DNA of 64,000 nucleotides from Chromatiales bacterium. Its GTDB lineage: Bacteria; Pseudomonadota; Gammaproteobacteria; Chromatiales; Chromatiaceae. The notes below the pieces were generated by a model. It saw nothing but the letters and a program-made list of their open reading frames with translations, did no database searches and had not been told where the DNA came from. Positions 28,214 through 62,907 of the stretch are shown one piece after another. Position 1 is the first letter of the stretch, and each line of letters starts with the position of its first letter. A program made the position numbers and the translations under genes. The stretch is taken from assembly GCA_050049775.1 (NCBI GenBank), contig JASFVP010000005.1, positions 32,896 through 96,895 on the forward strand. Reading direction: 5' to 3'.

Positions 28214-28395
28214 TCAGGGAGGTCTGATCGGCAACCGAACCCACCGGCCGTGTGTCGGCCGGTGGTTCAAACTGCTGCCACATGCGGCTGGCAAAAGAAC
28301 GTCGCCAGCTTTATGTGAGAGTGGTTTTACCAGAGAAGTTTTAAAGAAACCAAAAGGGATCAGTAAATCGCCCGGCTTTTGCCGGCATAAACTGG

Positions 28396-28494
28396 CTCCC
28401 TCTCCCTTCAGGGGAGAGGGTTGGGGTGAGGGGGATGTTCAGTGTTATTCAATCCTCACCCTGGCCCTCTCCCAAACTTGGGAGAGGGGATAGT
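28396..28494. repeat. GC-rich palindromic intergenic repeat, copy 1 (REP/MITE-like)
   Basis: CTCCCTCTCCCTTCAGGGGAGAGGGTTGGGGTGAGGG...CCCTCACCCTGGCCCTCTCCCAAACTTGGGAGAGGGGATAG. Two perfect hairpins with GGGAGAGGG arms. Family recurs at 32789, 33001 and 46199. Confidence 0.7.
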
Positions 28495-28542
28495 CGACCA
28501 ATCCGGCTTTTAGCCGATAGAGTGTTCACGGACGTTAATACA

Positions 28543-32788: not shown

Positions 32789-32937
32789 CCCCTCTCCCCT
32801 GAGGGGAGAGGGTTGGGGTGAGGGGGGTATGTTCAGCACTATCCAACCCTCACCCTGGCCCTCTCCCAGGCTTGGGAGAGGGGATAGTAGCAATACGGCT
32901 TTCAGCCGTAACCTGAAGCCACCGGCCTATGGTCGCT
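32789..32937. repeat. GC-rich palindromic repeat, copy 2, with hairpin tail
   Basis: Same core as copy 1, followed by an ACGGCTTTCAGCCGT hairpin and a GAAGCCACCGGCC...GGTCG tail. Confidence 0.7.
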
Positions 32938-33000
32938 GGTATGTTTACAGTTACACACGGGGATAAAAAAATCCCTCTGGTTTTAATTAGTCATAAATAG

Positions 33001-33151
33001 CTCCCTCTCCCCTGAGGGGAGAGGGTTGGGGTGAGGGGAAGCATGTCAGCATAATTCAACCCTCACCCTGACCCTCTCCCAAACTTGGGAGAGGGGATAG
33101 TAGCAATACGGCTTGCAGCCGTAACCTGAAGCCACCGGCCCATAGTCGGTG
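33001..33151. repeat. GC-rich palindromic repeat, copy 3 (tandem with copy 2, 60 bp apart)
   Basis: CTCCCTCTCCCCTGAGGGGAGAGGG...CCCTCTCCCAAACTTGGGAGAGGGGATAG plus tail. Preceded by a GGGGATAAAAAAATCCC-TGGTTTT terminator-like hairpin. Confidence 0.7.
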
Positions 33152-34854: not shown

Positions 34855-36557
34855 TGGCAACGATTGGCAGACAGGCTTATGCCGAAATGTACGGCCCGAC
34901 CACCGGCGACCGGGTGCGCCTGGCGGACACCGAGCTGTTCATCGAGGTCGAAGAAGATCGCACCGTGTATGGCGATGAAGTCAAGTTCGGCGGCGGCAAG
35001 GTGATTCGCGATGGCATGGGACAAAGCCAGCGTGTTGCGGCCGAAGTCATGGATGTGGTCATCACCAATGCGCTGATTTTGGATTGGTGGGGTATCGTCA
35101 AGGCGGACATCGGCATCAAGAACGGCCGCATCGCCGCCATCGGCAAGGCCGGTAACCCGGACGTGCAGCCCGGCGTGGACATCATTATCGGCCCGGGCAC
35201 CGAGGCGATTGCCGGTGAGGGTCAGATACTGACGGCTGGCGGTATCGATTCACACATTCATTTTATCTGCCCGCAACAGGTCGAAGAGGCATTGATGTCG
35301 GGCGTGACCACCATGCTGGGTGGCGGCACCGGACCGGCGACCGGCACCAATGCGACCACCTGTACGCCCGGTCCGTGGAACATCCACCGCATGTTGCAGG
35401 CGGCGGACGAGCTGCCGATGAATCTCGGTTTCCTCGGCAAGGGCAATGCCTCGCGGCCGGATCCCCTGTCCGAACAGATTCGTGCCGGTGCGATCGGCCT
35501 GAAGCTGCACGAGGACTGGGGCACCACGCCGGCGGCCATCGATAACTGCCTGACGGTGGCGGAAAACTTTGATGTGCAGGTCGCGATTCATACCGATACC
35601 CTGAACGAATCGGGTTTTGTTGAAGACACCCTGGCTGCGATGGATGGCCGCACTATTCACACCTACCACACGGAAGGCGCCGGTGGCGGGCATGCTCCGG
35701 ACATCATCAAGGCGGCCGGTTACGATAATGTGCTGCCGTCATCGACCAACCCTACGCGGCCTTACACGGTCAACACGGTCGATGAGCATCTCGACATGCT
35801 GATGGTCTGCCATCACCTGAGCCCGTCCATCGCCGAGGATGTCGCCTTCGCCGAATCGCGCATCCGCCGTGAAACCATCGCCGCGGAAGACATCCTGCAT
35901 GACTTGGGCGCGTTTTCCATGATTGCTTCGGATTCACAGGCCATGGGCCGCGTTGGCGAGGTGATCACACGCACCTGGCAGACGGCGCACAAGATGAAAG
36001 TCCAGCGGGGCGCATTGCAGGGCGACAGCAAGGATGCCGATAACCAGCGCGCCAAGCGTTATGTCGCCAAGTACACCATCAACCCGGCGCTCGCGCACGG
36101 CATGTCGCATGAAGTCGGCTCGGTAGAAGTCGGCAAGCTGGCCGACCTGGTGTTGTGGAAACCGGCTTTCTTTGGCGTCAAGCCAAGCCTCATCATCAAG
36201 GGCGGCATGATTGTCGCCGCGCCCATGGGCGATGCCAATGCTTCCATCCCGACACCGCAACCGGTGCATTATCGTCCCATGTTCGGCGCACTCGGCGGCG
36301 CGCGGCATGCCACCAGCGTCACCTTCATGTCACAGGCGGCCATTGCTGATGGCATACATCAGCAACTTGGTCTGCAATCGTTGATCCGTCCGGTGAAAGA
36401 GTGTCGCAGTGTGCGCAAGAAAGACATGCTGCTGAATAGCTATCAGCCCGTCATTGAAGTGGATGCGCAAACCTACCAGGTGCGCGCCGACGGTGAACTC
36501 TTGACCTGCGAGCCGGCGGAAGTGTTGCCCATGGCGCAACGTTACTTTTTGTTTTGA
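34854..36557 (+). CDS. ureC: Urease alpha subunit
   Basis: 567 aa; Ni-ligand histidines and carbamylated-Lys region ([10 protein letters not shown]); MVCHHL motif. Confidence 0.95.
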
Positions 36558-40951: not shown

Positions 40952-42428
40952 AACTCTGCTTGCCGCTTTTTTCATTGCTGTTATCGCGCTGTTGTCCAGC
41001 GGTTGTGAGCGCCAGCCGGATGAGCAAACCCTGCAAAACGAAATTGCTGAACTGATCGAGCAGGATCTCGGCAAAGACCTGTTTGAAATCGTTTCGTTGC
41101 GCCGGCTGGGTAGCGCGTCATTCACGGACAAGCTGACCGGCGATCAGCGCAAGACGGTGTATTTCAATATGCAGCTGCGTTTTCGACAGGCCATCGACCT
41201 GACCGCCTGGGACAGCCTGAATGGCGCGTCCATTGCGTTTTTGCTTGGTGCGACGGAAAAGGGTATTGACGGCATTGCCGCCGGTGGCAACAAGGTCGGG
41301 GATGTGCTGCGTATTCACGGCAGCCGCGTGTATGCCTTGCGTCAGGGGCAGTGGCGACCCTTGCCAACCACGCGTCAACCGACCGATGCGGACAAGGCCG
41401 CCGAGACGCAGCGCCTGATTGCACGCATCGAGGAACTGGCGGAACGTTCGGCGGCACGTCGTGGCGGTACGGAACAGGCGATTATCGACAAGGAGCTCAG
41501 GCAGTCTCTGAAACGCATCGAGCGCGCACTCGATCAACAGGCCAGGATCTTCAGCGCCGCCAGTGGTCCGCTGCGTGGCGCCTATAACCGTTATATCCAG
41601 GCGTTGGCGGATAACCCGAAAAGCCTCGGTTTCCAGGTGCGTAACTATGCCACTCAGGGCAGTGTCGAGAATTGCCTGCTGGTGCAATCCGGTGCTGTTG
41701 ATGTGGCGATTGCGCAAAGCAACTTCACGGCCCAGGCGTTGGCCGGCAGCGACCTGTTCCGACAACATGGAGCATTAAGCGACCTTCGTGCGGTGACTGC
41801 CCTGTTTCCGGAATATGTCCAGATTGTGGTGTCCAGCAAATCCGGCATCGACAGTATTGAAGCATTGAAAGGCAAACGGGTTGATCTCGGCTTGCCCGAA
41901 TCCGGCAGTCGTGTTGATGCCTTACGTTTACTGGAAGCGGCAAAACTGAAACTGCCGGACTTCGCCGAAATACGCGAGGCCGGGCTGGATGCTTCGGTCA
42001 GCGCCATGCGTACCGGCGAGCTGGATGCGTTTTTCACCACCTTGCAGGCGCCTGGATATGCGTTACAGAATCTGCTGGCGCGTGGTGAAGCCAGGCTGTT
42101 GTCCGTGCCGCTACAGTTGCAACAGGAGATGCAACAGAAATACGGTGTCTACCGGCCGGCCGAGCTGGCGGCAAACACCTATCCCGGCCAGCGTGAGGCG
42201 ATCGGCACACTGGCTGTTACCGCAACCCTGATTGTGCGTGCTGATTTGCCGGATGCGCGGGTCGAACAATTACTCAATGGCCTGTTCAAATCGGTCGCCA
42301 CACTCGCCAGGGATAACCTGCGCATCACCTTGCTGTCCGCCCGGACCGCACGGGAGGGCATCACCATTCCCTTGCATGCTGCGGCAGAGCATTATTTTTC
42401 AGGTCTGGAAAAAGATAGGCAGGAGTGA
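40941..42428 (+). CDS. Lipoprotein with N-terminal unknown domain fused to a TAXI-family TRAP-type solute-binding domain
   Basis: Lipobox LLSSGC. The C-terminal ~300 aa match the TAXI (TRAP-associated extracytoplasmic immunogenic) fold (NCLLVQSGAVDVAIAQSN...). Start overlaps the gltS stop by 11 nt. Confidence 0.7.
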   Translation: MVSRTLLAAFFIAVIALLSSGCERQPDEQTLQNEIAELIEQDLGKDLFEIVSLRRLGSASFTDKLTGDQRKTVYFNMQLRFRQAIDLTAWDSLNGASIAFLLGATEKGIDGIAAGGNKVGDVLRIHGSRVYALRQGQWRPLPTTRQPTDADKAAETQRLIARIEELAERSAARRGGTEQAIIDKELRQSLKRIERALDQQARIFSAASGPLRGAYNRYIQALADNPKSLGFQVRNYATQGSVENCLLVQSGAVDVAIAQSNFTAQALAGSDLFRQHGALSDLRAVTALFPEYVQIVVSSKSGIDSIEALKGKRVDLGLPESGSRVDALRLLEAAKLKLPDFAEIREAGLDASVSAMRTGELDAFFTTLQAPGYALQNLLARGEARLLSVPLQLQQEMQQKYGVYRPAELAANTYPGQREAIGTLAVTATLIVRADLPDARVEQLLNGLFKSVATLARDNLRITLLSARTAREGITIPLHAAAEHYFSGLEKDRQE

Positions 42429-42653
42429 GGGTGTGGATATTGCAATGCTGCAGATATTTGCGTGGTCTTCTCTCAGGACACAGTGTGTGCTCAGAGAAAA
42501 CCACGCCTTGCGCAGTACCTGCTTGTCCCGGCGGCGTTCGGCTTTTTTGGATTTGCCATGTACGCCACCTTTGCCAAGCAGTGGGTGGTTGTGTAACAGG
42601 TTTCTCTGTTTGGGTTGTTTTGTTTTCATCATCATTTCCTCGTTGTTGAAAAT

Positions 42654-42679
42654 AAGTGGGCCGGAGCCCCGGCCCACTT
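42654..42679 (-). terminator. Hairpin terminator at the 3' end of rtcB
   Basis: Perfect AAGTGGGCCGG-AGCC-CCGGCCCACTT stem-loop overlapping the rtcB stop, followed on the minus-strand transcript by AUUUUCAAC. Confidence 0.55.
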
Positions 42680-43877
42680 AACCTTTGATGCACACTACCT
42701 GTTTCAGGCTGTGTACGACTTCGACCAGATCGGTCTGGTTTGCCATTACCGTATCGATATCCTTATAGGCGCCCGGGATCTCATCGATGACCCCTTTGTC
42801 CTTACGGCATTCGACACCCTGTGTCTGGTTTTCCAGGTCGGACTGGTCAAACAGCTTCTTGGCTTTGGTCCTGGACATGACCCGTCCGGCACCATGCGAG
42901 CAGGAGCAGAATGAATCCGCGTTGCCCTTGCCACGCACAATGTAGGAGCGGGCGCCCATGGAGCCTGGGATAATGCCAAGTTCACCTTCACCCGCACGGA
43001 TGGCACCTTTACGTGTGACATAGACATCAGCGCCAAAGTGGTGTTCGCGTGCCACGTAGTTGTGGTGGCAGTTGATCGCTTCTTTGGTGATGCTGAATGT
43101 CGGCAGGTAACGTGCCAGCGCATCCAGGATCAGACGCATCATTTCACGCCGGTTGGTCATGGCGTAGTCCTGTGCCCAGCCGACGGCTTCGACATAGTCA
43201 TCGAAGTACTGTGCACCTTCAGTGAAGTACGCCAGGTCTTTATCAGGCAGGTAGCCGAGCTGGTCTCCCATGTCGTGCTTGGCCAGGTTGATAAAGTAAC
43301 GTCCGATGACATTGCCGATGCCACGTGAGCCCGAGTGCAGCATGACCCAGACGGCATCGTTTTCATCGAGACAGATTTCGATGAAATGGTTGCCGCCACC
43401 CAGCGATGCCAGTTGCCGTATCCAGGTTTCGTAAGAGCGCTGACGCTGCATCTTGCGAATACCCGGGTGCTTGTCGTAAATCACCTCCAGCGTTTTGGCC
43501 AGTGGGGTGATGGTGGAACGCTTGACCGGGTCCTGACGGTGCATGTCAAAGCCGACCGGAATGGCCTGCTCGATGCGACTACGCAGTTGCCTCAGGCTGT
43601 CCGGCAGTTGCGCGGCGGTCAGTGAAGTCCGAATGGCATTCATGCCACAGCCGATGTCGACACCGACGGCCGCCGGCACGATGGCACCCCGGGTCGGGAT
43701 TACCGAACCCACGGTGGCACCGATACCGGCATGCACGTCCGGCATGGCGGCAACGTGATGATGCACAAACGGCATCTGTGAAACATTTGCCAGTTGGTCC
43801 AGCGCCTTGGACTGGGTGTCTGTCGTCCAGATATGGACCGGCACCTTGCCCTTGTTGAGGGTTTGTAGAATAGGCAT
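42678..43877 (-). CDS. rtcB: RtcB-family RNA 3'-phosphate/5'-OH ligase
   Basis: 399 aa; metal-ligand His/Cys motifs of RtcB (HNYV, GSRG, HGAGR) and the HFIEI...LHSGSRGIG region. Confidence 0.85.
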   Translation of the reverse strand: MPILQTLNKGKVPVHIWTTDTQSKALDQLANVSQMPFVHHHVAAMPDVHAGIGATVGSVIPTRGAIVPAAVGVDIGCGMNAIRTSLTAAQLPDSLRQLRSRIEQAIPVGFDMHRQDPVKRSTITPLAKTLEVIYDKHPGIRKMQRQRSYETWIRQLASLGGGNHFIEICLDENDAVWVMLHSGSRGIGNVIGRYFINLAKHDMGDQLGYLPDKDLAYFTEGAQYFDDYVEAVGWAQDYAMTNRREMMRLILDALARYLPTFSITKEAINCHHNYVAREHHFGADVYVTRKGAIRAGEGELGIIPGSMGARSYIVRGKGNADSFCSCSHGAGRVMSRTKAKKLFDQSDLENQTQGVECRKDKGVIDEIPGAYKDIDTVMANQTDLVEVVHSLKQVVCIKG

Positions 43878-43887
43878 AGTGAATTCC

Positions 43888-44838
43888 TTATTGCAATGTT
43901 AGTTGATAAAAGTGTGGTGCAAGCTTTGCACGCCGCAGTCGTTTGTGTGTACGTTTGTTGTTGAGAAAACCGGGCATGCTGTCGGTCTCATCAAAACAAA
44001 ACTGCCGTGGCAGGCGAGTGTATAAAGATCTGGGCGGCCCATACTCACGGTTGATACGTTTCAGGCAGTTGCCGGTTTCCCAGCTGTGGTACCAGAGACG
44101 GTCGATGCCCAGTTCATGCCGCACAAAATCAATGACGGCCGACAGCATGGCCTGGCTCCAGTCTTTCAGCAGCGGTTCGACAAACTGCAGATAGGCTTTT
44201 GCCTGCTTTACCGTTGTGTCGTAGCGGCAGCTGAGAATGTTGGCGTCATTATCCTTGTAGTACGTTAGTCGACGCTGTAAGCGGGCGACATCCCTGACCC
44301 AGTCACTCTGGATTTCCTCGACCAATACCTCATCGTTGTCGAGATCGACATCCAGCCGTGCCCAGGCCAGGGTTTCACGGTAGTAGTGCCGCTCACCACG
44401 CCGTAACTGCGGATGACCGCCGTAATTAAACACACCATCGCGCTTTGGCTTGATGGATGTGCTCAGTATGTGATCATGCTGATGATTGAAGTTAAGGTGC
44501 AACACCAGGTTGTAACCGGGTCTTGATGTCTGGGTGTAACGGCCGGATTTACTTCCCCAGAGACCGGCGGTGACCAGGTAGGTAACGCCGGGTTCCAGCC
44601 AGTACTGGCTGAACAGATCCGGATCAATGCGGCCATTGCCGCAGTTGTGTATTAACTGCTTGATGCCCGGCCTGTCCAGCAGCTTGCCGAAGCCGGATGT
44701 TTTGATGTCGCGAATACTGCTATAGCGTTGCGTGGCCAGCTGCAGCAATTGCGCCGCATAACGATCACGGCAATAGCCGTAAAGACTGCGCTCTTTAGGC
44801 AGACAGTCGAGTAACTCCTGTGCATAGTGTAGTTCCAT
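43888..44838 (-). CDS. Hypothetical protein (316 aa), co-operonic with rtcB; contains a K-x-D-G motif
   Basis: 10-bp gap to rtcB. No family recognised by eye. SIKPKRDGVF resembles nucleotidyltransferase/ligase motif I (KxDG); this is speculative. Confidence 0.5.
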   Translation of the reverse strand: MELHYAQELLDCLPKERSLYGYCRDRYAAQLLQLATQRYSSIRDIKTSGFGKLLDRPGIKQLIHNCGNGRIDPDLFSQYWLEPGVTYLVTAGLWGSKSGRYTQTSRPGYNLVLHLNFNHQHDHILSTSIKPKRDGVFNYGGHPQLRRGERHYYRETLAWARLDVDLDNDEVLVEEIQSDWVRDVARLQRRLTYYKDNDANILSCRYDTTVKQAKAYLQFVEPLLKDWSQAMLSAVIDFVRHELGIDRLWYHSWETGNCLKRINREYGPPRSLYTRLPRQFCFDETDSMPGFLNNKRTHKRLRRAKLAPHFYQLTLQ

Positions 44839-44972
44839 GTTTTCTCTCCATTGAAATAGAGACGATGAATTGAATAAATAGTCTGTTGTTGTTTGTGTCA
44901 GGCATAAGCCCTCCTGTATGAATCTGAAATGCCCGGCCTTCAGGCCGGGCGGTTAGGTTGATGTTGCCCGAG

Positions 44973-46115
44973 TCAGGCATTGATCCTGATGGTGTCCTTA
45001 AGCACGCCATCGAGACCGCCGAAGACAGTCAGACGATCCACCTTGTCGGTTACCTTTTCGAGTGTTTCCAGCTCTTTCAGGCGTAGCAGGGTGGGGTTGT
45101 CGTCCATCAGTTTGGCGGTGTTCAGCAGCGAACGGGTCGCGGCGGTTTCTTCACGCCGCTTGATGACATTGGCCTGGGCAGCTTTTTCTGCCTGCACCAC
45201 CTGGTTGAGAATATCCTTCATCTCACCGGGCAGGATAATGTCCTTAAGACCGACACTGCTCAGCACAAAGCCATGCTCGGAGGCGTTGGCCGCAACCTGG
45301 TCAAACACCTCGCGGTCTACGTGCTGCTTGTCTTCCAGCAGCTTGTCCAGGTTACGGGTACCGACGGACTGCCGCAGCGCAAACTGCAGCTCGCGGTAAA
45401 TCCAGTCCAGCGGCTTCTGCAGTTGTGCACGTGCTTTCACCGGGTCCTGCACCTGGTACTGGGCCGCCAGATTCAGCCGCAGCGAGACCTTGTCACGGGT
45501 CAGGATTTCCTGGCCCTGGACTTCCATCGCCTGGATACGGGTATCCAGCTGCTCTACGCAGACGTGCCGTTTTACCGACCAGAAGGCGTGGAAGCCCGGT
45601 TTCAGGGTCTGCACCAGCTCACCATCCACCAGCAGCAGGCCAACGAAGTGATCCATGACTTCAGTGCTGTAGACATAAGGCGACAGCTCACGGGCCACAG
45701 CACCACCGTTGCCACGGAACACGGCATCCGACAGCGCTGCAGGTAGCTGCAGCTCATGCTGGATATCGATGCGATCCACACGCAGACGGTAAGGCACTTT
45801 CCAGTAAACCTTGTGCTGACCGGGCGCCAGCAGCTCAATGAAGCTCTCGTCACGGTAAACCAGGCCGATCTGGTTATCCGCCATGATGACGGTTTCCAGG
45901 TGTGCCTCAAGCAGTTTGCCGGCTGACTTCATCAGGACTTCGGCGTTACGGTTGCTGCAGACCGCCTGGCCCAGGTCGTGCAGCTCAGGCTGAATACGGC
46001 CCAGCGGGTCAAAATAACGGTAGACGCCGGGCTCCAGCACCCTGGTGAGCTGACGATCCCGAAACAGCAAACCGCGCTCGTGCTGGGCCACAACGATGCG
46101 CTTGTAACCAAACAT
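44973..46115 (-). CDS. SPFH/band-7 (stomatin/flotillin/HflKC-like) domain protein
   Basis: 380 aa; SPFH core and a C-terminal coiled-coil region (KAAQANVIKRREETAATRSLLNTAKLMD...) typical of band-7 proteins; no TM anchor seen. Confidence 0.75.
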   Translation of the reverse strand: MFGYKRIVVAQHERGLLFRDRQLTRVLEPGVYRYFDPLGRIQPELHDLGQAVCSNRNAEVLMKSAGKLLEAHLETVIMADNQIGLVYRDESFIELLAPGQHKVYWKVPYRLRVDRIDIQHELQLPAALSDAVFRGNGGAVARELSPYVYSTEVMDHFVGLLLVDGELVQTLKPGFHAFWSVKRHVCVEQLDTRIQAMEVQGQEILTRDKVSLRLNLAAQYQVQDPVKARAQLQKPLDWIYRELQFALRQSVGTRNLDKLLEDKQHVDREVFDQVAANASEHGFVLSSVGLKDIILPGEMKDILNQVVQAEKAAQANVIKRREETAATRSLLNTAKLMDDNPTLLRLKELETLEKVTDKVDRLTVFGGLDGVLKDTIRINA

Positions 46116-46198
46116 GTTTTTTCTCCTTTTGTTGTTAATTGATTCAAAGTCACAGATAGGGGATCAGAAAATCCCCTGGTTTTCGCTGGTATAAGCCA

Positions 46199-46351
46199 GC
46201 TCCCTCTCCCCTGAGGGAGAGGGTTGGGGTGAGGGTGTGTTCAGCGTTATTCAACCCTCACCCTGGCCCTCTCCCAAGCTTGGGAGAGGGGACAGTCAGC
46301 CGCATGTCGATCCATTCGGCTATTTGAAGCCACCGGCTCATAGCCGGTGGA
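46199..46351. repeat. GC-rich palindromic repeat, copy 4, with perfect tail hairpin
   Basis: Same core (GCTCCCTCTCCCCTGAGGGAGAGGG...CCCTCTCCCAAGCTTGGGAGAGGGGACAG) plus tail CCACCGGCTCATAGCCGGTGG. Preceded by a GGGGATCAGAAAATCCCC-TGGTTTT terminator-like hairpin. Confidence 0.7.
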
Positions 46352-46611
46352 ATGCGTACTGCCTTTGCGAAATACACTCTTGAGTGCACTTCGAAAAGGC
46401 GCAGCCTCACACGGAAAACGCGGACCTGGACGGTCTGTCGAAGCGGGCCGGACAGCGGTCACTGCACTCCGGTCTTCAGTCACATGGATAATCGGAGATG
46501 AGTGATGGCTGTTTGGCTGGCTGCGGCAGACAGCGCCGGGTGCGGGCATTAACTGTGCTGCAGGACGGCATGCGAAATTCCGTTTCCACAACCTGCAGAG
46601 GCTTTGCCAAG

Positions 46612-46730
46612 GGATATAACTGCGGATTCGAACCGCGGGCCGGTAGGCCTTAACCAAGTGAGGATAAGAGGATTTGAACCTCTGACAGATCGAACCAATG
46701 TCGATTGCTCTCCCAAACTGAGCTATATCC
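46612..46730 (-). pseudogene. Chimeric tRNA-like element, 119 nt, with two T-arms (pseudo-tRNA / att-site remnant?)
   Basis: Minus-strand read: GGATATA-TA-GCTCAGTTTGGGAGAGC-A-ATCGA-CATTGGT-TCGAT-CTGTC-AGAGGTTCAAATCCTCT-TATCCTCA, then a second T-arm GCGGTTCGAATCCGC-AG-TTATATCC. The 5' GGATATA pairs perfectly with the distal TATATCC, but only 5 of 7 with the proximal strand. Anticodon loop would read UUG with an atypical A33. Confidence 0.3.
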
Positions 46731-46915
46731 ATGGCGTCATCACAAATGATCAGGTGCGGTACACCAGATTGCAGGGCAACAGGGTGCCAGCGGGTTATAT
46801 CGAAACCCGGCCACGGTCACATGAACACTTATTGAAGACAAGACACACCCGCCAGGTATCGAACCCGGGCGGGTGAAATAAAGTTCACTACTGATGCTGA
46901 TACAGCAGCATAAAC

Positions 46916-47156
46916 TGGTGGGGACGGTGAGATTCGAACTCACAGGGAACTGGGTCCTGGGAACCCCTGATTAATTCTGGACGAAGCAGATTGAGCTCGA
47001 AAATATCCAGATTCAAGGCGTCAATCGCACGTAATAGCCCAGCTATTGCGAAGATTGATAACGCAGAAGCTGGGTATTTTAAGCACAAGATGCGAGTTCA
47101 TGAATTGGTCAGGGGTTCCCTAGGCCTGCCGCGTCTGCCAATTGCGCCACGTCCCC
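46916..47156 (-). ncRNA. Atypical ~240-nt tRNA-like RNA: tRNA-Leu-like acceptor/D-arm plus T-arm and encoded CCA, with the anticodon arm replaced by a 12-bp helix enclosing 139 nt
   Basis: 5' GGGGACG-UG-GCGCAAUUGGCAGACGCG matches a class-II tRNA-Leu 5' part. 3' GUGAGUUCGAAUCUCAC-CGUCCCC-A-CCA. The acceptor strands GGGGACG/CGUCCCC are perfectly complementary. Internal GGGAACCCCUGA...UCAGGGGUUCCC is a perfect 12-bp pairing. No tmRNA-type tag frame found. Confidence 0.4.
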
Positions 47157-47359
47157 GAAACAACTGGCTTCAATACAGCCTGATGCTGCGTGATCCGCTG
47201 GGCATGACAGATCGCCAGCAGAATTTTCGGATGTGCCCGGTTCATTGCGACTCCATGACGAAGGAACCAGCGCGCATTGGTGTGTGTGCCGCTGCGGCGT
47301 GCTACAGGCAGCTGCATATCCTGTATCGCGTTTTCAAACTTGATGCGTTCAGTCGTCAT
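47120..47359 (-). CDS. Hypothetical small protein (79 aa) with strong RBS
   Basis: ATG preceded by GAAGGAGGTAACC (AGGAGG, 5-nt spacer). Starts MTTERIKFENAIQDMQLPVARRSG. Its 3' end overlaps the tRNA-like RNA by 37 nt. The longer track ORF (TTG at 47515) would run through tRNA-Lys and is rejected. Confidence 0.3.
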   Translation of the reverse strand: MTTERIKFENAIQDMQLPVARRSGTHTNARWFLRHGVAMNRAHPKILLAICHAQRITQHQAVLKPVVSGTWRNWQTRQA

Positions 47360-47404
47360 GGTTACCTCCTTCTGGCAGTCGTAAAAAGTGACATGTTGAA
47401 AATG

Positions 47405-47480
47405 TGGCAGGTCACGCAGGATTCGAACCTGCACCTTTCGGCTTAAAAGGCCGATGTGCTTGCCATTACACCAGCGACCT
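47405..47480 (-). tRNA. tRNA-Lys (anticodon UUU), CCA encoded
   Basis: Cloverleaf fits the canonical model: acceptor AGGTCGC/GTGACCT (one G-U), D-arm GTGT/GCAC, anticodon stem TCGGC/GCCGA, loop CTTTTAA, T-arm GCAGGTTCGAATCCTGC identical to the E. coli tRNA-Lys T-arm, discriminator G, then CCA. Confidence 0.8.
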
Positions 47481-47488
47481 GAAAAGGG

Positions 47489-47590
47489 CTGACAGGGCCG
47501 GAATCGAACCGGCAAAAAACCGTGGCCGTCTCACAGAGTGATGCAGACTTGCAGTAATCCGGTTCCGCCAACCATGGCGTACCTGCCAAA
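47489..47590 (-). other. tRNA-like 3' element (T-arm GCCGGTTCGATTCCGGC, ~99-nt possible tRNA-Sec-like or degenerate tRNA), unresolved
   Basis: Canonical T-arm followed by CCTGTCA-G with no CCA. A possible 5' partner TGGCAGG lies 99 nt upstream and a 5-bp D-stem CGCCA-TGGT-TGGCG is present, but no convincing anticodon arm could be folded by eye. Confidence 0.3.
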
Positions 47591-48085
47591 TGATCCGGCC
47601 TGAACGACCGGAATCGGTGCGGCGGGAGTCCGGTAATCCATTCCCCCTGGCACTGCAACGCTGCGCTTACTCGTGATGTCAAACACTGGCTCGAACAGCG
47701 TTACTACCTCTTGTCCCTGGCGGTAACCGATCTGCTGGCAGCCATTTCCGGCCCGTAGCCGAAAACACGGGGATGAGGCTTGCCTGGTATTAGCCCCAGG
47801 CGGCCTGATGTTCATACCCTGCCGACTGCACTGACGGATCTCCGGCTCATCCTTCCCGCTGACCCGATAGGCGACTCAATCCGCAACCCTCGGGCACACA
47901 GGCGCGGCTGCGCAATAGCGCGCAGAGATATGTCATGCAAGACATGTCGCTCCGGCTAACGGCAGGTTATCCGGTTTGCAGGCACGACTTGCATGCTGGC
48001 CATAATCCACTTTTTGGATGCGGCCAAAGATTTGATTCCACATTGTTAAAGAGCATGCCGGAGCTTGCTCCGGCTGTCCGGGGCA

Positions 48086-48119
48086 ATAAAAAACCCCCGG
48101 GGTTTTCACCAACCGGGGG
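48086..48119 (-). terminator. Rho-independent terminator (minus strand) downstream of the 48183..48380 ORF
   Basis: CCCCCGG-GGTTTTCACCAA-CCGGGGG (7-bp stem) followed on the minus transcript by UUUUUUAUU. An adjacent GCCGGAGC-TT-GCTCCGGC hairpin lies at 48056-48073. Confidence 0.5.
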
Positions 48120-48182
48120 TTATGGCCTTCCGGAAAGTGTCAATTCTTAAAGACACCTTCCTGCAACAATGTGGAGAAGGCG

Positions 48183-48380
48183 TCAGTTCATATCAGGTTT
48201 TGTCTCATCGCAGAGGTTGCACAGGGTCATGCTGTGTTTGCCCGGCAGATGCTTGAAATACAGGCGCACGAGTACGTCCTGCCTCACTTGCAAGGCAGCA
48301 AACGTATCAATGTTGTAGTTCGCTATGGATGGCACTGTTGGCTCCTGTAAAAAATAAAAGAAAGGTTTCCCTCTCAACAT
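48183..48380 (-). CDS. Hypothetical small protein (65 aa), divergent from the XRE regulator
   Basis: ORF only; the cro/cI-like divergent arrangement with the downstream HTH regulator is the main support. Confidence 0.3.
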   Translation of the reverse strand: MLRGKPFFYFLQEPTVPSIANYNIDTFAALQVRQDVLVRLYFKHLPGKHSMTLCNLCDETKPDMN

Positions 48381-48410
48381 GGCGGGGAAGTATAATTAGC
48401 GAACCAGAAA

Positions 48411-49055
48411 ATGCAAGAAAGAATTTTGCAAATGACAAAAAAAAATTCAGGTGTATCGAGACAGAAAGATCCGGTGGCGGTCAAGATCGGCAAGCGCATT
48501 GCCCAGGCGCGCAAGATGTCCGGCTTCAAGACGGCACGCGAATTTCGTCGCAAGCTGCCGCGCTGGCCGGAGAACCGGCTGTCCTGGTATGAAGCCGGTT
48601 ACTCGATGCCGCACCCCAATGATGTTGAAACCATTGCCAGACTGACCGGGACTTCGGCCTGCTGGATCATGTTCGGACTTGGACCGATCCGTTCCGGTGA
48701 ACGAGACCTGCAAGCCGTACGCCATCAGAACCTGGTGTACCTGTTTCAACAGGCCAGCGACGATTCCGCACAAAGCGGCACGGATTTCTTGCTGGCATTA
48801 AAGCTTGAAGCCGGACAGCTGGCTGAATACATCGATAACCCTTTCAAGCACATTGGTGAACGCCTGGCGCGAAGTATTGAAAAGGCTGCCGGCCGTTCGC
48901 GTAAATGGCTGGATGAGCAGCATGTCGAGTCCGATGGACTCTGTGGTTCCTTTCCGGATGATTTGCGTGAACTTATGACCATTTACTCAGAGATGGATGA
49001 CAAGGGGCGGGACATGCTGGTGGCGATGGCTCGCACATTGGCGGAACGCATCTAG
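48411..49055 (+). CDS. XRE-family (cI-like) HTH transcriptional regulator
   Basis: N-terminal HTH_XRE-like VKIGKRIAQARKMSGFKTAREFRRKL plus a C-terminal domain; 214 aa. Confidence 0.65.
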   Translation: MQERILQMTKKNSGVSRQKDPVAVKIGKRIAQARKMSGFKTAREFRRKLPRWPENRLSWYEAGYSMPHPNDVETIARLTGTSACWIMFGLGPIRSGERDLQAVRHQNLVYLFQQASDDSAQSGTDFLLALKLEAGQLAEYIDNPFKHIGERLARSIEKAAGRSRKWLDEQHVESDGLCGSFPDDLRELMTIYSEMDDKGRDMLVAMARTLAERI

Positions 49056-62575: not shown

Positions 62576-62907
62576 AATGCCGTCAGGCTCATCAGGGTGA
62601 AAGGTATGACTGCAATCATACCCGATTGCCAGCCTATCTGTTCGGCTACCTGATACGGTATGTGTTGGTGACAACGTACTGCGTTACAGCGGCAAGTTGG
62701 ACAGTCATGGCACAGTTGTTGCTCTTGCATGTATGGATAAAGCTCAACAATGCAGGCATGACCTCAAATGACGCAGATGATGTCCAGAATGATCACTCAC
62801 GTACTGTATTGGTGCAGCCGTCCCACGCCGGTCAAGAGTTTACCGCGACAGTCGATAAAACCGGGTAACGCTTTTAACAACAATTATTTCAACCCCAACA
62901 AGCCTGC

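Follow-up and report, generated by a model that had tools for sequence, protein, structure and literature searches.

Introduction

RtcB ligases join RNA ends that carry a 2',3'-cyclic phosphate and a 5'-OH. In Salmonella, RtcB is encoded in the rsr-yrlBA-rtcBA operon together with Ro60, Y RNAs and RtcA, and this operon is activated by RtcR and sigma-54. Here, we analyse an RtcB locus in a 64,000-nucleotide (nt) stretch of DNA from a Chromatiales bacterium (assembly GCA_050049775.1, contig JASFVP010000005.1, positions 32,896 to 96,895 of the forward strand), called the window below, where tRNA and tRNA-like elements, an SPFH/Band-7 gene, an open reading frame (ORF) for a protein of 316 amino acids (aa), the RtcB gene and a terminator hairpin follow one another on the minus strand in order of transcription. 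A first-pass annotation had listed these co-oriented features (42654-47640), all of which we found on that strand at or near the same positions, and had read them as an RNA-repair or stress module. The present analysis supports that interpretation, with a mechanism that we infer, and we consider it probable that the locus is a portable RNA-repair/translation-stress cassette of ~6.6 kb, of the kind that combines a Band-7/SPFH protein, a b7a-tRNA and RtcB.

Such a combination has been predicted before. Burroughs and Aravind (2016), as quoted in a preprint (bioRxiv 10.1101/312249), described a Band-7 protein, a tRNA-like RNA and RtcB as belonging together, and named the RNA b7a-tRNA; an SPFH gene is also embedded in the rtc locus of Pseudomonas aeruginosa (PMC13086221). 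RtcB, an adjacent Band-7 protein and an upstream tRNA-like RNA are all present in the window, where the 'tRNA-Gln' at 46732-46658 is the b7a-tRNA as these authors name it in the quoted text. The earlier impression that the arrangement was undescribed is thus wrong for SPFH, tRNA mimic and RtcB, predicted in 2016, and it stands for the 316-aa protein; neither this protein nor a small basic protein encoded beyond RtcB was found described in the literature or in the prediction as quoted. To that prediction, in its quoted form, the window adds these two proteins, an XRE-type regulator, a leader with a boxA and more structured RNAs. No paper linking RtcB to a partner with a GNAT fold was found, Burroughs and Aravind (2016) being represented by the citing preprint. 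The GNAT-fold RtcB partner (the 316-aa protein), the small basic protein, the structured boxA leader and the association with tRNA arrays, RbfA-like genes and RtcA genes appear to be new.

As in the Salmonella operon, an RtcB gene is accompanied by a tRNA-mimicking RNA and a putative ring-forming RNA-binding scaffold, and by analogy the logic of scaffold, mimic and ligase is likely to be the same. The two differ in that the scaffold of the window is an SPFH protein and its regulator an XRE-type helix-turn-helix (HTH) protein, with no RtcA in the cassette and no adjacent RtcR. No cassette protein matched TROVE (Ro60) in Pfam or NCBIfam, and no Y RNA of Rfam was detected across 42400-48500 up to E=10.

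In Anabaena, TrcR represses an array of 26 tRNAs as well as rtcB, a slipin operon, GNAT genes and a gene for an HNH endonuclease, and translation stress induces the array and rtcB (PMC8421152; PMC10272220). Cyanobacterial L-arrays have HNH endonuclease and rtcB genes as neighbours (PMC8421152). Arrays, HNH, SPFH and RtcB are likewise physically linked in loci related to that of the window, but the regulator is XRE-type whereas TrcR is a ribbon-helix-helix (RHH) protein, and the genes form one cassette whereas those of Anabaena are scattered. The long tRNA run of an L-array is absent from the window, which has only a tRNA-Lys, the b7a-tRNA and one disrupted tRNA. Finally, the RtcB2-PrfH ribosome-repair module of Escherichia coli (PMC9223846, PMC13166195) resembles the present family in joining RtcB to a translation helper, as in some relatives RtcB is accompanied by an RbfA-like 30S-binding protein and the small basic protein. 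It differs in that no gene resembling PrfH was noticed in the cassette and the window RtcB scores 141.1 bits with the PrfH-associated NCBIfam model release_rtcB, below the cut-off of 271.8.

Layout and conservation of the cassette

The principal features of the locus are the following.

42399-42635, minus strand: small basic protein, 78 aa from ATGATGATG, with a GAGGAA ribosome-binding site (ORF clustering across loci)
42648-42677, minus strand: GC-rich terminator hairpin and T-rich tail directly 3' of the RtcB stop codon (direct reading)
42678-43877, minus strand: RtcB RNA ligase, 399 aa (Pfam RtcB, E=1.4e-130, full-length)
43888-44838, minus strand: 316-aa protein of an unnamed family, with a GNAT-like core after a helical N-terminal region
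44973-46115, minus strand: SPFH/Band-7 (stomatin-like) protein, 380 aa (Pfam Band_7, E=4e-28)
46116-46640, minus strand: T-arm-like hairpin (46640-46615) and conserved structured leader down to the SPFH start codon (8-locus alignment, many invariant columns)
46658-46732, minus strand: b7a-tRNA, 'tRNA-Gln(UUG)' for ARAGORN (Rfam tRNA, 46.1 bits), with two terminal acceptor pairs mismatched
48411-49055, plus strand: divergent XRE-type HTH regulator, 214 aa (Pfam HTH_31, E=5.4e-5, below the Pfam cut-off; PHROG transcriptional-repressor families)

The RtcB protein matched the PHROG tRNA-splicing ligase family (E=4.6e-148) and solved RtcB structures (E=2e-33 to 2e-27), and its translation shows the catalytic motifs DIGCG, GGGNHF, HSGSRG and SHGAGR. 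Its gene starts 10 nt from the stop codon of the 316-aa gene, which is the only gene between RtcB and the co-oriented SPFH gene. The terminator previously noticed at the RtcB stop codon could be read directly (stem GTGGGCCGG-GGCT-CCGGCCCAC at 42677-42656, then TTATTTTC), though a terminator scan did not list it. The small protein gene lies just past this hairpin. With it and the HTH gene, the module reaches beyond the limits first drawn for it, to about 42399-49055, or ~6.6 kb.

A scan of one genome per species detected relatives of the 316-aa protein in 458 species genomes, mostly of marine or sediment Gammaproteobacteria (Thiodiazotropha, Beggiatoa-like bacteria, Woeseiaceae), some being Hyphomicrobiales and Desulfobacteraceae. 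The best 80 species-level loci encoding such a relative, referred to by L numbers, were surveyed with the window proteins by tblastn and for tRNAs by ARAGORN; 55 of the 80 have at least 1.5 kb on both sides and constitute the fully flanked subset. RtcB was found in 53 of the 80 loci, at no more than 0.5 kb from the 316-aa gene in 50 of them, and the corresponding counts in the fully flanked loci were 41 and 38 of 55. The two genes occur in either order, and in four loci (L067, L073, L074 and L081) the partner RtcB is just 26–29% identical to that of the window. SPFH was present in 20 of the 80. Co-occurrence of RtcB and SPFH at these frequencies in related genomes, a point on which the first-pass annotation had made its proposal depend, favours a real module.

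The genes that flank the cassette are not the same in the window and in its closest relative, L001, which suggests that the cassette moves as a unit. Judged from such sequence comparisons, the ~6.6-kb stretch with the HTH gene at one end and the small protein gene at the other behaves as a portable cassette. Its G+C content is not unusual. Copies of the 316-aa gene were sought in E. coli genomes, plasmids and phages and none was found, and no cassette protein matched the defence families of PADLOC.

The SPFH protein and the b7a-tRNA

Stomatin structures matched residues 189-365 of the SPFH protein (E=2e-17). Typical stomatins have a transmembrane helix, whereas none was predicted in the cassette protein, whose maximum Kyte-Doolittle hydropathy over 19 residues is 1.15. 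In 19 of the 20 loci with SPFH, a co-oriented tRNA-like gene lies 300–540 nt upstream of the SPFH gene. The 'anticodon' that ARAGORN assigns to this gene varies nearly from locus to locus (Met, Lys, Ile, Leu, Glu, ochre suppressor or undetermined). A covariance model, R1, was built from 20 SPFH-linked tRNA-like sequences, that of the window among them. With R1, b7a-tRNAs score at least 73 bits and ordinary array tRNAs at most 62 bits; the window sequence, itself part of the training set, scores 80.7 bits. The model also picked up a b7a-tRNA in L036 that ARAGORN had missed, and it found none in the loci where RtcB and the 316-aa gene occur without SPFH.

Across the 20 sequences, 98.7% of the alignment cells in the cloverleaf are standard pairs, and compensatory changes occur at 13 of the 19 pairs. 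None of 500 shuffles reached the observed values, and slid controls pair in only 36–48% of the cells. These results argue that the b7a-tRNA is a selected, folded RNA and not an integration scar, the outcome that had been named in advance as fatal to the module. The molecule departs from ordinary tRNAs in several ways. Its acceptor helix has 5–6 pairs, with pair 1-72 open in 15 of the 20 sequences and pair 2-71 in 7, and CCA is not encoded. Within the close clade, identity is 0.67 in the anticodon loop but 0.93–1.00 in the stems, the D arm and the T arm, and the anticodon differs in nearly every genome (UUG, CAU, UUA, UUU, UUC, CAG). U33 is otherwise universal in tRNAs; here 6 of 10 close-clade members lack it, among them the window, where the loop reads CAUUGGU with an A at 33, and the b7a-tRNA of L018 has an anticodon loop of 6 nt. 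As the loop is variable while the body is constant, and U33 has been lost in 6 of 10, the b7a-tRNA is, on comparative grounds, no ordinary decoder.

The remaining tRNA region and inserted elements

Around the b7a-tRNA gene, the region holds further tRNA-type elements and two kinds of inserted sequence, together with copies of the second kind elsewhere in the window.

46740-46885, minus strand: conserved structured segment upstream of the b7a-tRNA, with a T-arm/acceptor-like minihelix (10-locus alignment; T-loop motif at 46864-46856)
46915-47155, minus strand: split Leu(UAG)-like tRNA gene, 5' half at 47155-47119 and 3' part at 46943-46915 (family alignment)
46959-47120: miniature inverted-repeat transposable element (MITE)-like insert of ~160 nt with perfect 12-bp terminal inverted repeats GGGAACCCCTGA, splitting the anticodon region of the Leu(UAG)-like gene
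47405-47480, minus strand: tRNA-Lys(UUU) of canonical look, CCA encoded (ARAGORN; Rfam tRNA, 66.9 bits)
47489-47589, minus strand: degenerate tRNA-like remnant with intact T-arm (T-loop motif at 47509-47501)
28395-28495, 32790-32884, 32999-33097 and 46198-46297: dispersed repetitive extragenic palindrome (REP)-like element of ~100 nt, rich in GGGAGAGGG and CCCTCTCCC

The window contains 13 sites of the T-loop motif GTTCRAWWC, compared to 4.1 expected, and six of these sites fall within 46625-47509, all on the minus strand. The tRNA cluster seen at first is real, and several of its elements are degraded in this genome. The tRNA-Lys shares 87% identity with the one directly upstream of the 316-aa gene of L017 and ~81% with the array tRNA-Lys of L058, L037 and L060. 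The two halves of the Leu(UAG)-like gene are 89–97% identical to intact Leu(UAG/CAG)-like genes of 75–79 nt in L001, L008, L014 and L016; as the gene is split by the MITE-like insert and also bears a substitution in the anticodon stem, it is a pseudogene in this genome. It belongs to a second conserved tRNA family (L003, L005, L008, L011, L014, L016, L019, L023, L037, L058, L069 and L070), Leu(UAG/CAG)-like and only 75–79 nt long, whose members have an acceptor stem of 7 bp, ACCA in the gene and a short variable arm, in contrast to normal class II tRNA-Leu. The remnant at 47589-47489 gave 24.3 bits with Rfam tRNA-Sec (E=0.19), below the gathering score of 47.

In L033 and L044, a copy of the MITE-like element with ~70% identity sits on the other strand, between the 316-aa gene and RtcB. 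An ORF named ORF79 (47120-47359, minus strand) has a strong AGGAGG ribosome-binding site, and its 3' end reads through the 5' half of the tRNA-Leu-like gene; weak matches to its residues 7-43 occur within the L045 tRNA array (E=3e-7) and, in L029, upstream of the 316-aa gene.

In this genome the leader at 46116-46640 is broken by an insertion of ~215 nt (46345-46130) that carries the REP-like palindrome. The four copies of this palindrome are 88–91% identical and yield spurious weak matches to Rfam microRNAs. The repeat had been counted among the parts of the module. It exists, but three further copies in the window and none in the related loci mark it as a repeat dispersed in this genome, and the copy at 46198-46297 is incidental.

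In relatives, the tRNA region can be much larger. Co-oriented arrays of 4–20 tRNAs lie upstream of the module in L026, L037, L045, L058 and L060, those of L045 and L058 comprising 18–20 tRNAs, and in five loci an HNH endonuclease is encoded between the tRNA array and the b7a-tRNA.

Regulator and leader

Between the divergent HTH gene and the tRNA region lies a non-coding leader in which near-invariant blocks follow in the order inverted repeat, terminator-like hairpin, and boxB-like hairpin with boxA.

48132-48161, minus strand: inverted repeat GGAAGGTGTC-N10-GACACTTTCC, candidate operator (read from the sequence; second arm also GACACYTTCC)
48088-48120, minus strand: near-invariant hairpin ACCCCCGG...CCGGGGGT, with six T's after it (conservation of nearly 100% in 10 loci, also in the loop)
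48043-48074, minus strand: boxB-like hairpin (48074-48057), then rrn-type boxA GCTCTTTAACAA (48054-48043)
47638-47822, minus strand: 'block B', a conserved structured leader RNA of ~160 nt (~70–78% identical to a dozen related loci)

Homologues of the HTH protein, with 44–80% identity, are encoded divergently upstream in 19 of the 80 loci, and the protein is presumed to be the repressor of the cassette. Both arms of the inverted repeat are kept in 10 related loci, with the exact pattern in 8, and we infer that it is the operator. The hairpin that follows resembles an intrinsic terminator or a small RNA's end. This segment (48088-48161) could combine an operator with a small RNA or attenuator.

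The 12-nt boxA sequence GCUCUUUAACAA is exact at 48054-48043, the sole match in the window at up to one mismatch (0.16 expected). GCTCTTTAACAA is the boxA sequence known from the E. coli rrn leader. Related loci have boxA-like sites (at most one mismatch) on the module strand in 14 cases, the other strand giving 3 one-mismatch matches. These sites always precede the tRNA/tRNA-like region or, where there is none, the operon leader, and their bearers include the distant array loci L045, L058, L070 and L075. Block B was folded with RNAalifold into 49 pairs, 9 of them with compensatory changes, and it has no match in Rfam up to E=10.

Control by RtcR and sigma-54, which had been put forward as something to look for, found no support. 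No RtcR gene lies beside the module, where the adjacent regulator is the XRE-type HTH protein, and sigma-54 consensus matches occur at chance level (53, compared to 51 expected). The nearest match (46609-46594) is two mismatches off and lies inside a conserved hairpin. A perfect sigma-54 consensus, TGGCACAGTTGTTGCT, is found at 62708-62723 on the plus strand, remote from the cassette.

The 316-aa protein

Searches of Pfam, NCBIfam, PADLOC and PHROG assigned the 316-aa protein to no family. A 100% identical database protein comes from a metagenome-assembled genome of the Chromatiales. Its 247 homologues are all labelled 'hypothetical' and none has a Pfam domain, and a profile search of 1.84 billion representative proteins returned 883 clusters, nearly all of ~315 aa. 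Seven polar residues are invariant in the family alignment: R161, D163, E174, E175, D179, H251 and K260. The best fold matches are GNAT acyltransferases. None of the GNAT families of Pfam and NCBIfam matched at E<=0.01, and a profile search of the PDB sequences with the family gave nothing at E<=10.

The protein had been thought to carry a KxDG-like motif, and with it possibly a nucleotidyltransferase, ligase or nuclease fold. The motif exists as KRDG (residues 132-135) but is not kept across the family alignment and hence carries no meaning; moreover, no nucleotidyltransferase or ligase signature was found, the fold matching GNAT instead. This identity was accordingly rejected.

Three relatives (P0218, P0219 and P0191) have an N-terminal extension of ~85 residues, basic and then acidic (MPxRxSEGGMGGRLGRS...). 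These extensions were considered as a fused copy of the small protein, which was not supported, the resemblance being loose (hhalign probability 0.2–1.7%). In the 134-nt gap between the SPFH and 316-aa genes there is a GC-rich hairpin GCCCGGCCTGAAGGCCGGGC (44931-44950, minus strand) with no T-run behind it.

The small basic protein and genes added in relatives

The small protein of the window shows the conserved motif as RN..h..PLLgKGGVH.KS...R. The motif, RNP.a..PLLRKGGVH.KS...R in the family, was found in 49 of the 80 loci, always on the module strand, and in 31 of the 80 its gene lies directly 3' of the 316-aa gene. The family has 1831 homologues, all hypothetical or unnamed. A strong hairpin (42506-42460; -44.6 kcal/mol, z=-3.8) in the 3' half of the gene is also seen in the SPFH-type loci. 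The layout, a small basic protein with a strong hairpin in the 3' part of its gene, resembles arfA in that respect alone. Identity with ArfA was not supported, as there was no ArfA match in Pfam or NCBIfam and hhalign gave a probability of 0.4% with E. coli ArfA.

An RbfA-like gene lies directly upstream of RtcB, on the same strand, in 14 loci (for example L042 4225-4668; Pfam RBFA 41.8 bits, cut-off 34.7). In L087 (1082-5222), the order is RtcA, RbfA-like, RtcB (in two gene calls), a 319-aa gene without Pfam domain and the small protein; from its position and length, the 319-aa gene is presumed to belong to the 316-aa family.

Elsewhere in the window, a match to the Helicobacter '5' ureB sRNA' of Rfam (35004-35289, minus strand, 130 bits) lies antisense within a urease gene cluster. 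It probably reflects conserved ureB coding sequence and not a small RNA (sRNA).

Discussion

The evidence assembled above suggests a working model for the cassette. A divergent XRE-type repressor would hold the operon off. On induction, the long structured leader, in which the boxA sequence itself is observed, would be transcribed, and the boxA may let RNA polymerase pass through ~2 kb of structured RNA that is not translated (block B, tRNAs and b7a-tRNA) and so reach the protein genes. RtcB would then reseal RNAs cut by ribotoxins to leave 2',3'-cyclic phosphate and 5'-OH ends, for instance in tRNA anticodon loops or 16S rRNA. A soluble ring or cage of SPFH oligomers may hold the b7a-tRNA, and the two together would serve as a scaffold or mimic gathering substrates or RtcB, comparable to Ro60 and Y RNA, as Burroughs and Aravind (2016) proposed. 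The 316-aa GNAT-fold protein would act directly with RtcB, as a cofactor or as a modifier of the repaired RNA or of a ribosomal component, and the small basic protein might bind the ribosome or RNA. These roles for the two proteins, with RtcB on tRNA or the small subunit, are suggested because of gene linkage, the RbfA-like and RtcA neighbours and the fold. The ordinary-looking tRNAs, in arrays in relatives and as the intact tRNA-Lys here, may top up or buffer the tRNA pool, in analogy to Anabaena's trn operon. More tentatively, and as a possibility that we would put no higher than that, the GNAT-fold and 'PLLRKGGVH' proteins could be the core of an unrecognised RtcB-linked pathway of ribosome or tRNA repair, which RbfA-like/RtcA or an SPFH cage with its tRNA mimic join according to lineage, under antitermination of the rRNA style.

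Several observations weigh against an RNA-repair cassette of the proposed kind. In 14 of the 55 fully flanked loci the 316-aa gene has no RtcB inside 6 kb, and in Ketobacter the small protein accompanies a 312-aa gene without Pfam domain, presumably of the 316-aa family, with no RtcB nearby; the function of the 316-aa protein may thus not depend on RtcB. A common neighbour substituting for RtcB was sought in those 14 loci and none was found. In the window, the RNA region is partly degraded or interrupted, by the split of the tRNA-Leu-like gene and the REP-like insertion. The terminator-like hairpin at 48088-48120 sits upstream of boxA, and a scan for sigma-70-like promoters across 42400-48500 gave 0 sites. 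As for the 316-aa protein, a Foldseek comparison with solved structures gave nothing significant (best E=0.068). Its segment after the presumed strand beta-4, a strand placed from the DSSP string alone, reads EEIQSDWVR, without glycines, and the CoA-binding motif Q/RxxGxG/A is missing. It has the alpha/beta fold of the GNAT superfamily but neither the acyl-CoA motif nor a match to a curated sequence model. With the motif absent and the structural match not significant, the GNAT assignment concerns the fold only, and we call it a GNAT-fold protein and not an acetyltransferase. Finally, the 2018 preprint states that the existence of the b7a-tRNA as an RNA had not been validated (bioRxiv 10.1101/312249), and we found no experimental test of Band-7/b7a-tRNA/RtcB systems in the literature.

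Other explanations of the locus give different weight to its parts. It might be the remnant of a horizontally spread L-array that supplied extra tRNAs under translation stress, its tRNA-like elements being decaying genes and RtcB and its neighbours co-regulated passengers. The co-oriented arrays just upstream in L026, L037, L045, L058 and L060, the HNH gene between array and b7a-tRNA in five loci, as at the cyanobacterial L-arrays (PMC8421152), the 80–87% identity of the tRNA-Lys to those of related loci, array copies included, and the tRNA-Leu-like pseudogene would all fit such an origin. Neutral decay, however, does not account for a b7a-tRNA tied to SPFH at a fixed distance in 19 of 20 loci, with a near-invariant body, a short acceptor helix and an odd anticodon loop, and the majority of loci with both RtcB and the 316-aa gene are devoid of tRNAs. 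We consider this origin unlikely, and it is in part compatible with the repair cassette. The tRNA-like elements might also be inert scars of integration at tRNA genes, in an accidental arrangement. Several elements are indeed fragmentary or interrupted here, but the b7a-tRNA and its flanks keep position, orientation and sequence over many genera, with compensatory pair changes, and no integrase was seen among the immediate neighbours of the cassette, although no search was aimed at integrases. Covariation and synteny already contradict the scars, to which we give hardly any credence.

The variable anticodon loop lends itself to another explanation, in which the cassette is a conflict system against anticodon nucleases of phages or competitors, the b7a-tRNA acting as a decoy whose loop tracks their specificities and RtcB resealing bait or targets. 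The loop does differ nearly from genome to genome while the tRNA body is 93–100% identical, the cassette occurs in differing genomic contexts, and a 'sponge' role has been suggested for array tRNAs (PMC8421152). On the other hand, relaxed constraint would explain the variability, the loss of U33 and the 6-nt loop of L018 at least equally well. None of the proteins matches a PADLOC defence family, and the 316-aa gene was not found in phages or plasmids, so we regard a decoy as rather improbable. It is also quite improbable, in our view, that the 316-aa protein forms a self-contained pair with the small protein, toxin-antitoxin-like or peptide-modifying, with a secondary link to RtcB. The direct succession of the two genes in 31 of the 80 loci and their company in Ketobacter, where RtcB is not nearby, would agree with a pair, and toxins with a GNAT fold that acetylate aminoacyl-tRNA do exist, such as TacT and AtaT. 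The 316-aa protein, however, is twice the size of such toxins and has neither the CoA motif nor a match among toxin families, and the small protein is basic, unlike RHH/DUF1778 antitoxins, and is encoded downstream, or elsewhere in the SPFH-type loci. Moreover, RtcB is adjacent to the 316-aa gene in both gene orders, and in four loci the partner is an RtcB of only 26–29% identity.

For the Band-7/b7a-tRNA branch of RtcB systems, the locus family analysed here provides a concrete parts list: a tRNA mimic of defined structure, a soluble SPFH protein, an unnamed GNAT-fold companion of RtcB in hundreds of species, a very widespread small basic protein and a leader of the rRNA antitermination type. 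If the GNAT-fold protein is a cofactor of RtcB or a modifier of RNA or the ribosome, it would be a new component of RNA repair. If the SPFH protein cages the tRNA-like RNA, the particle would be a bacterial parallel to those of Ro60 with Y RNA and of the vault with vault RNA.

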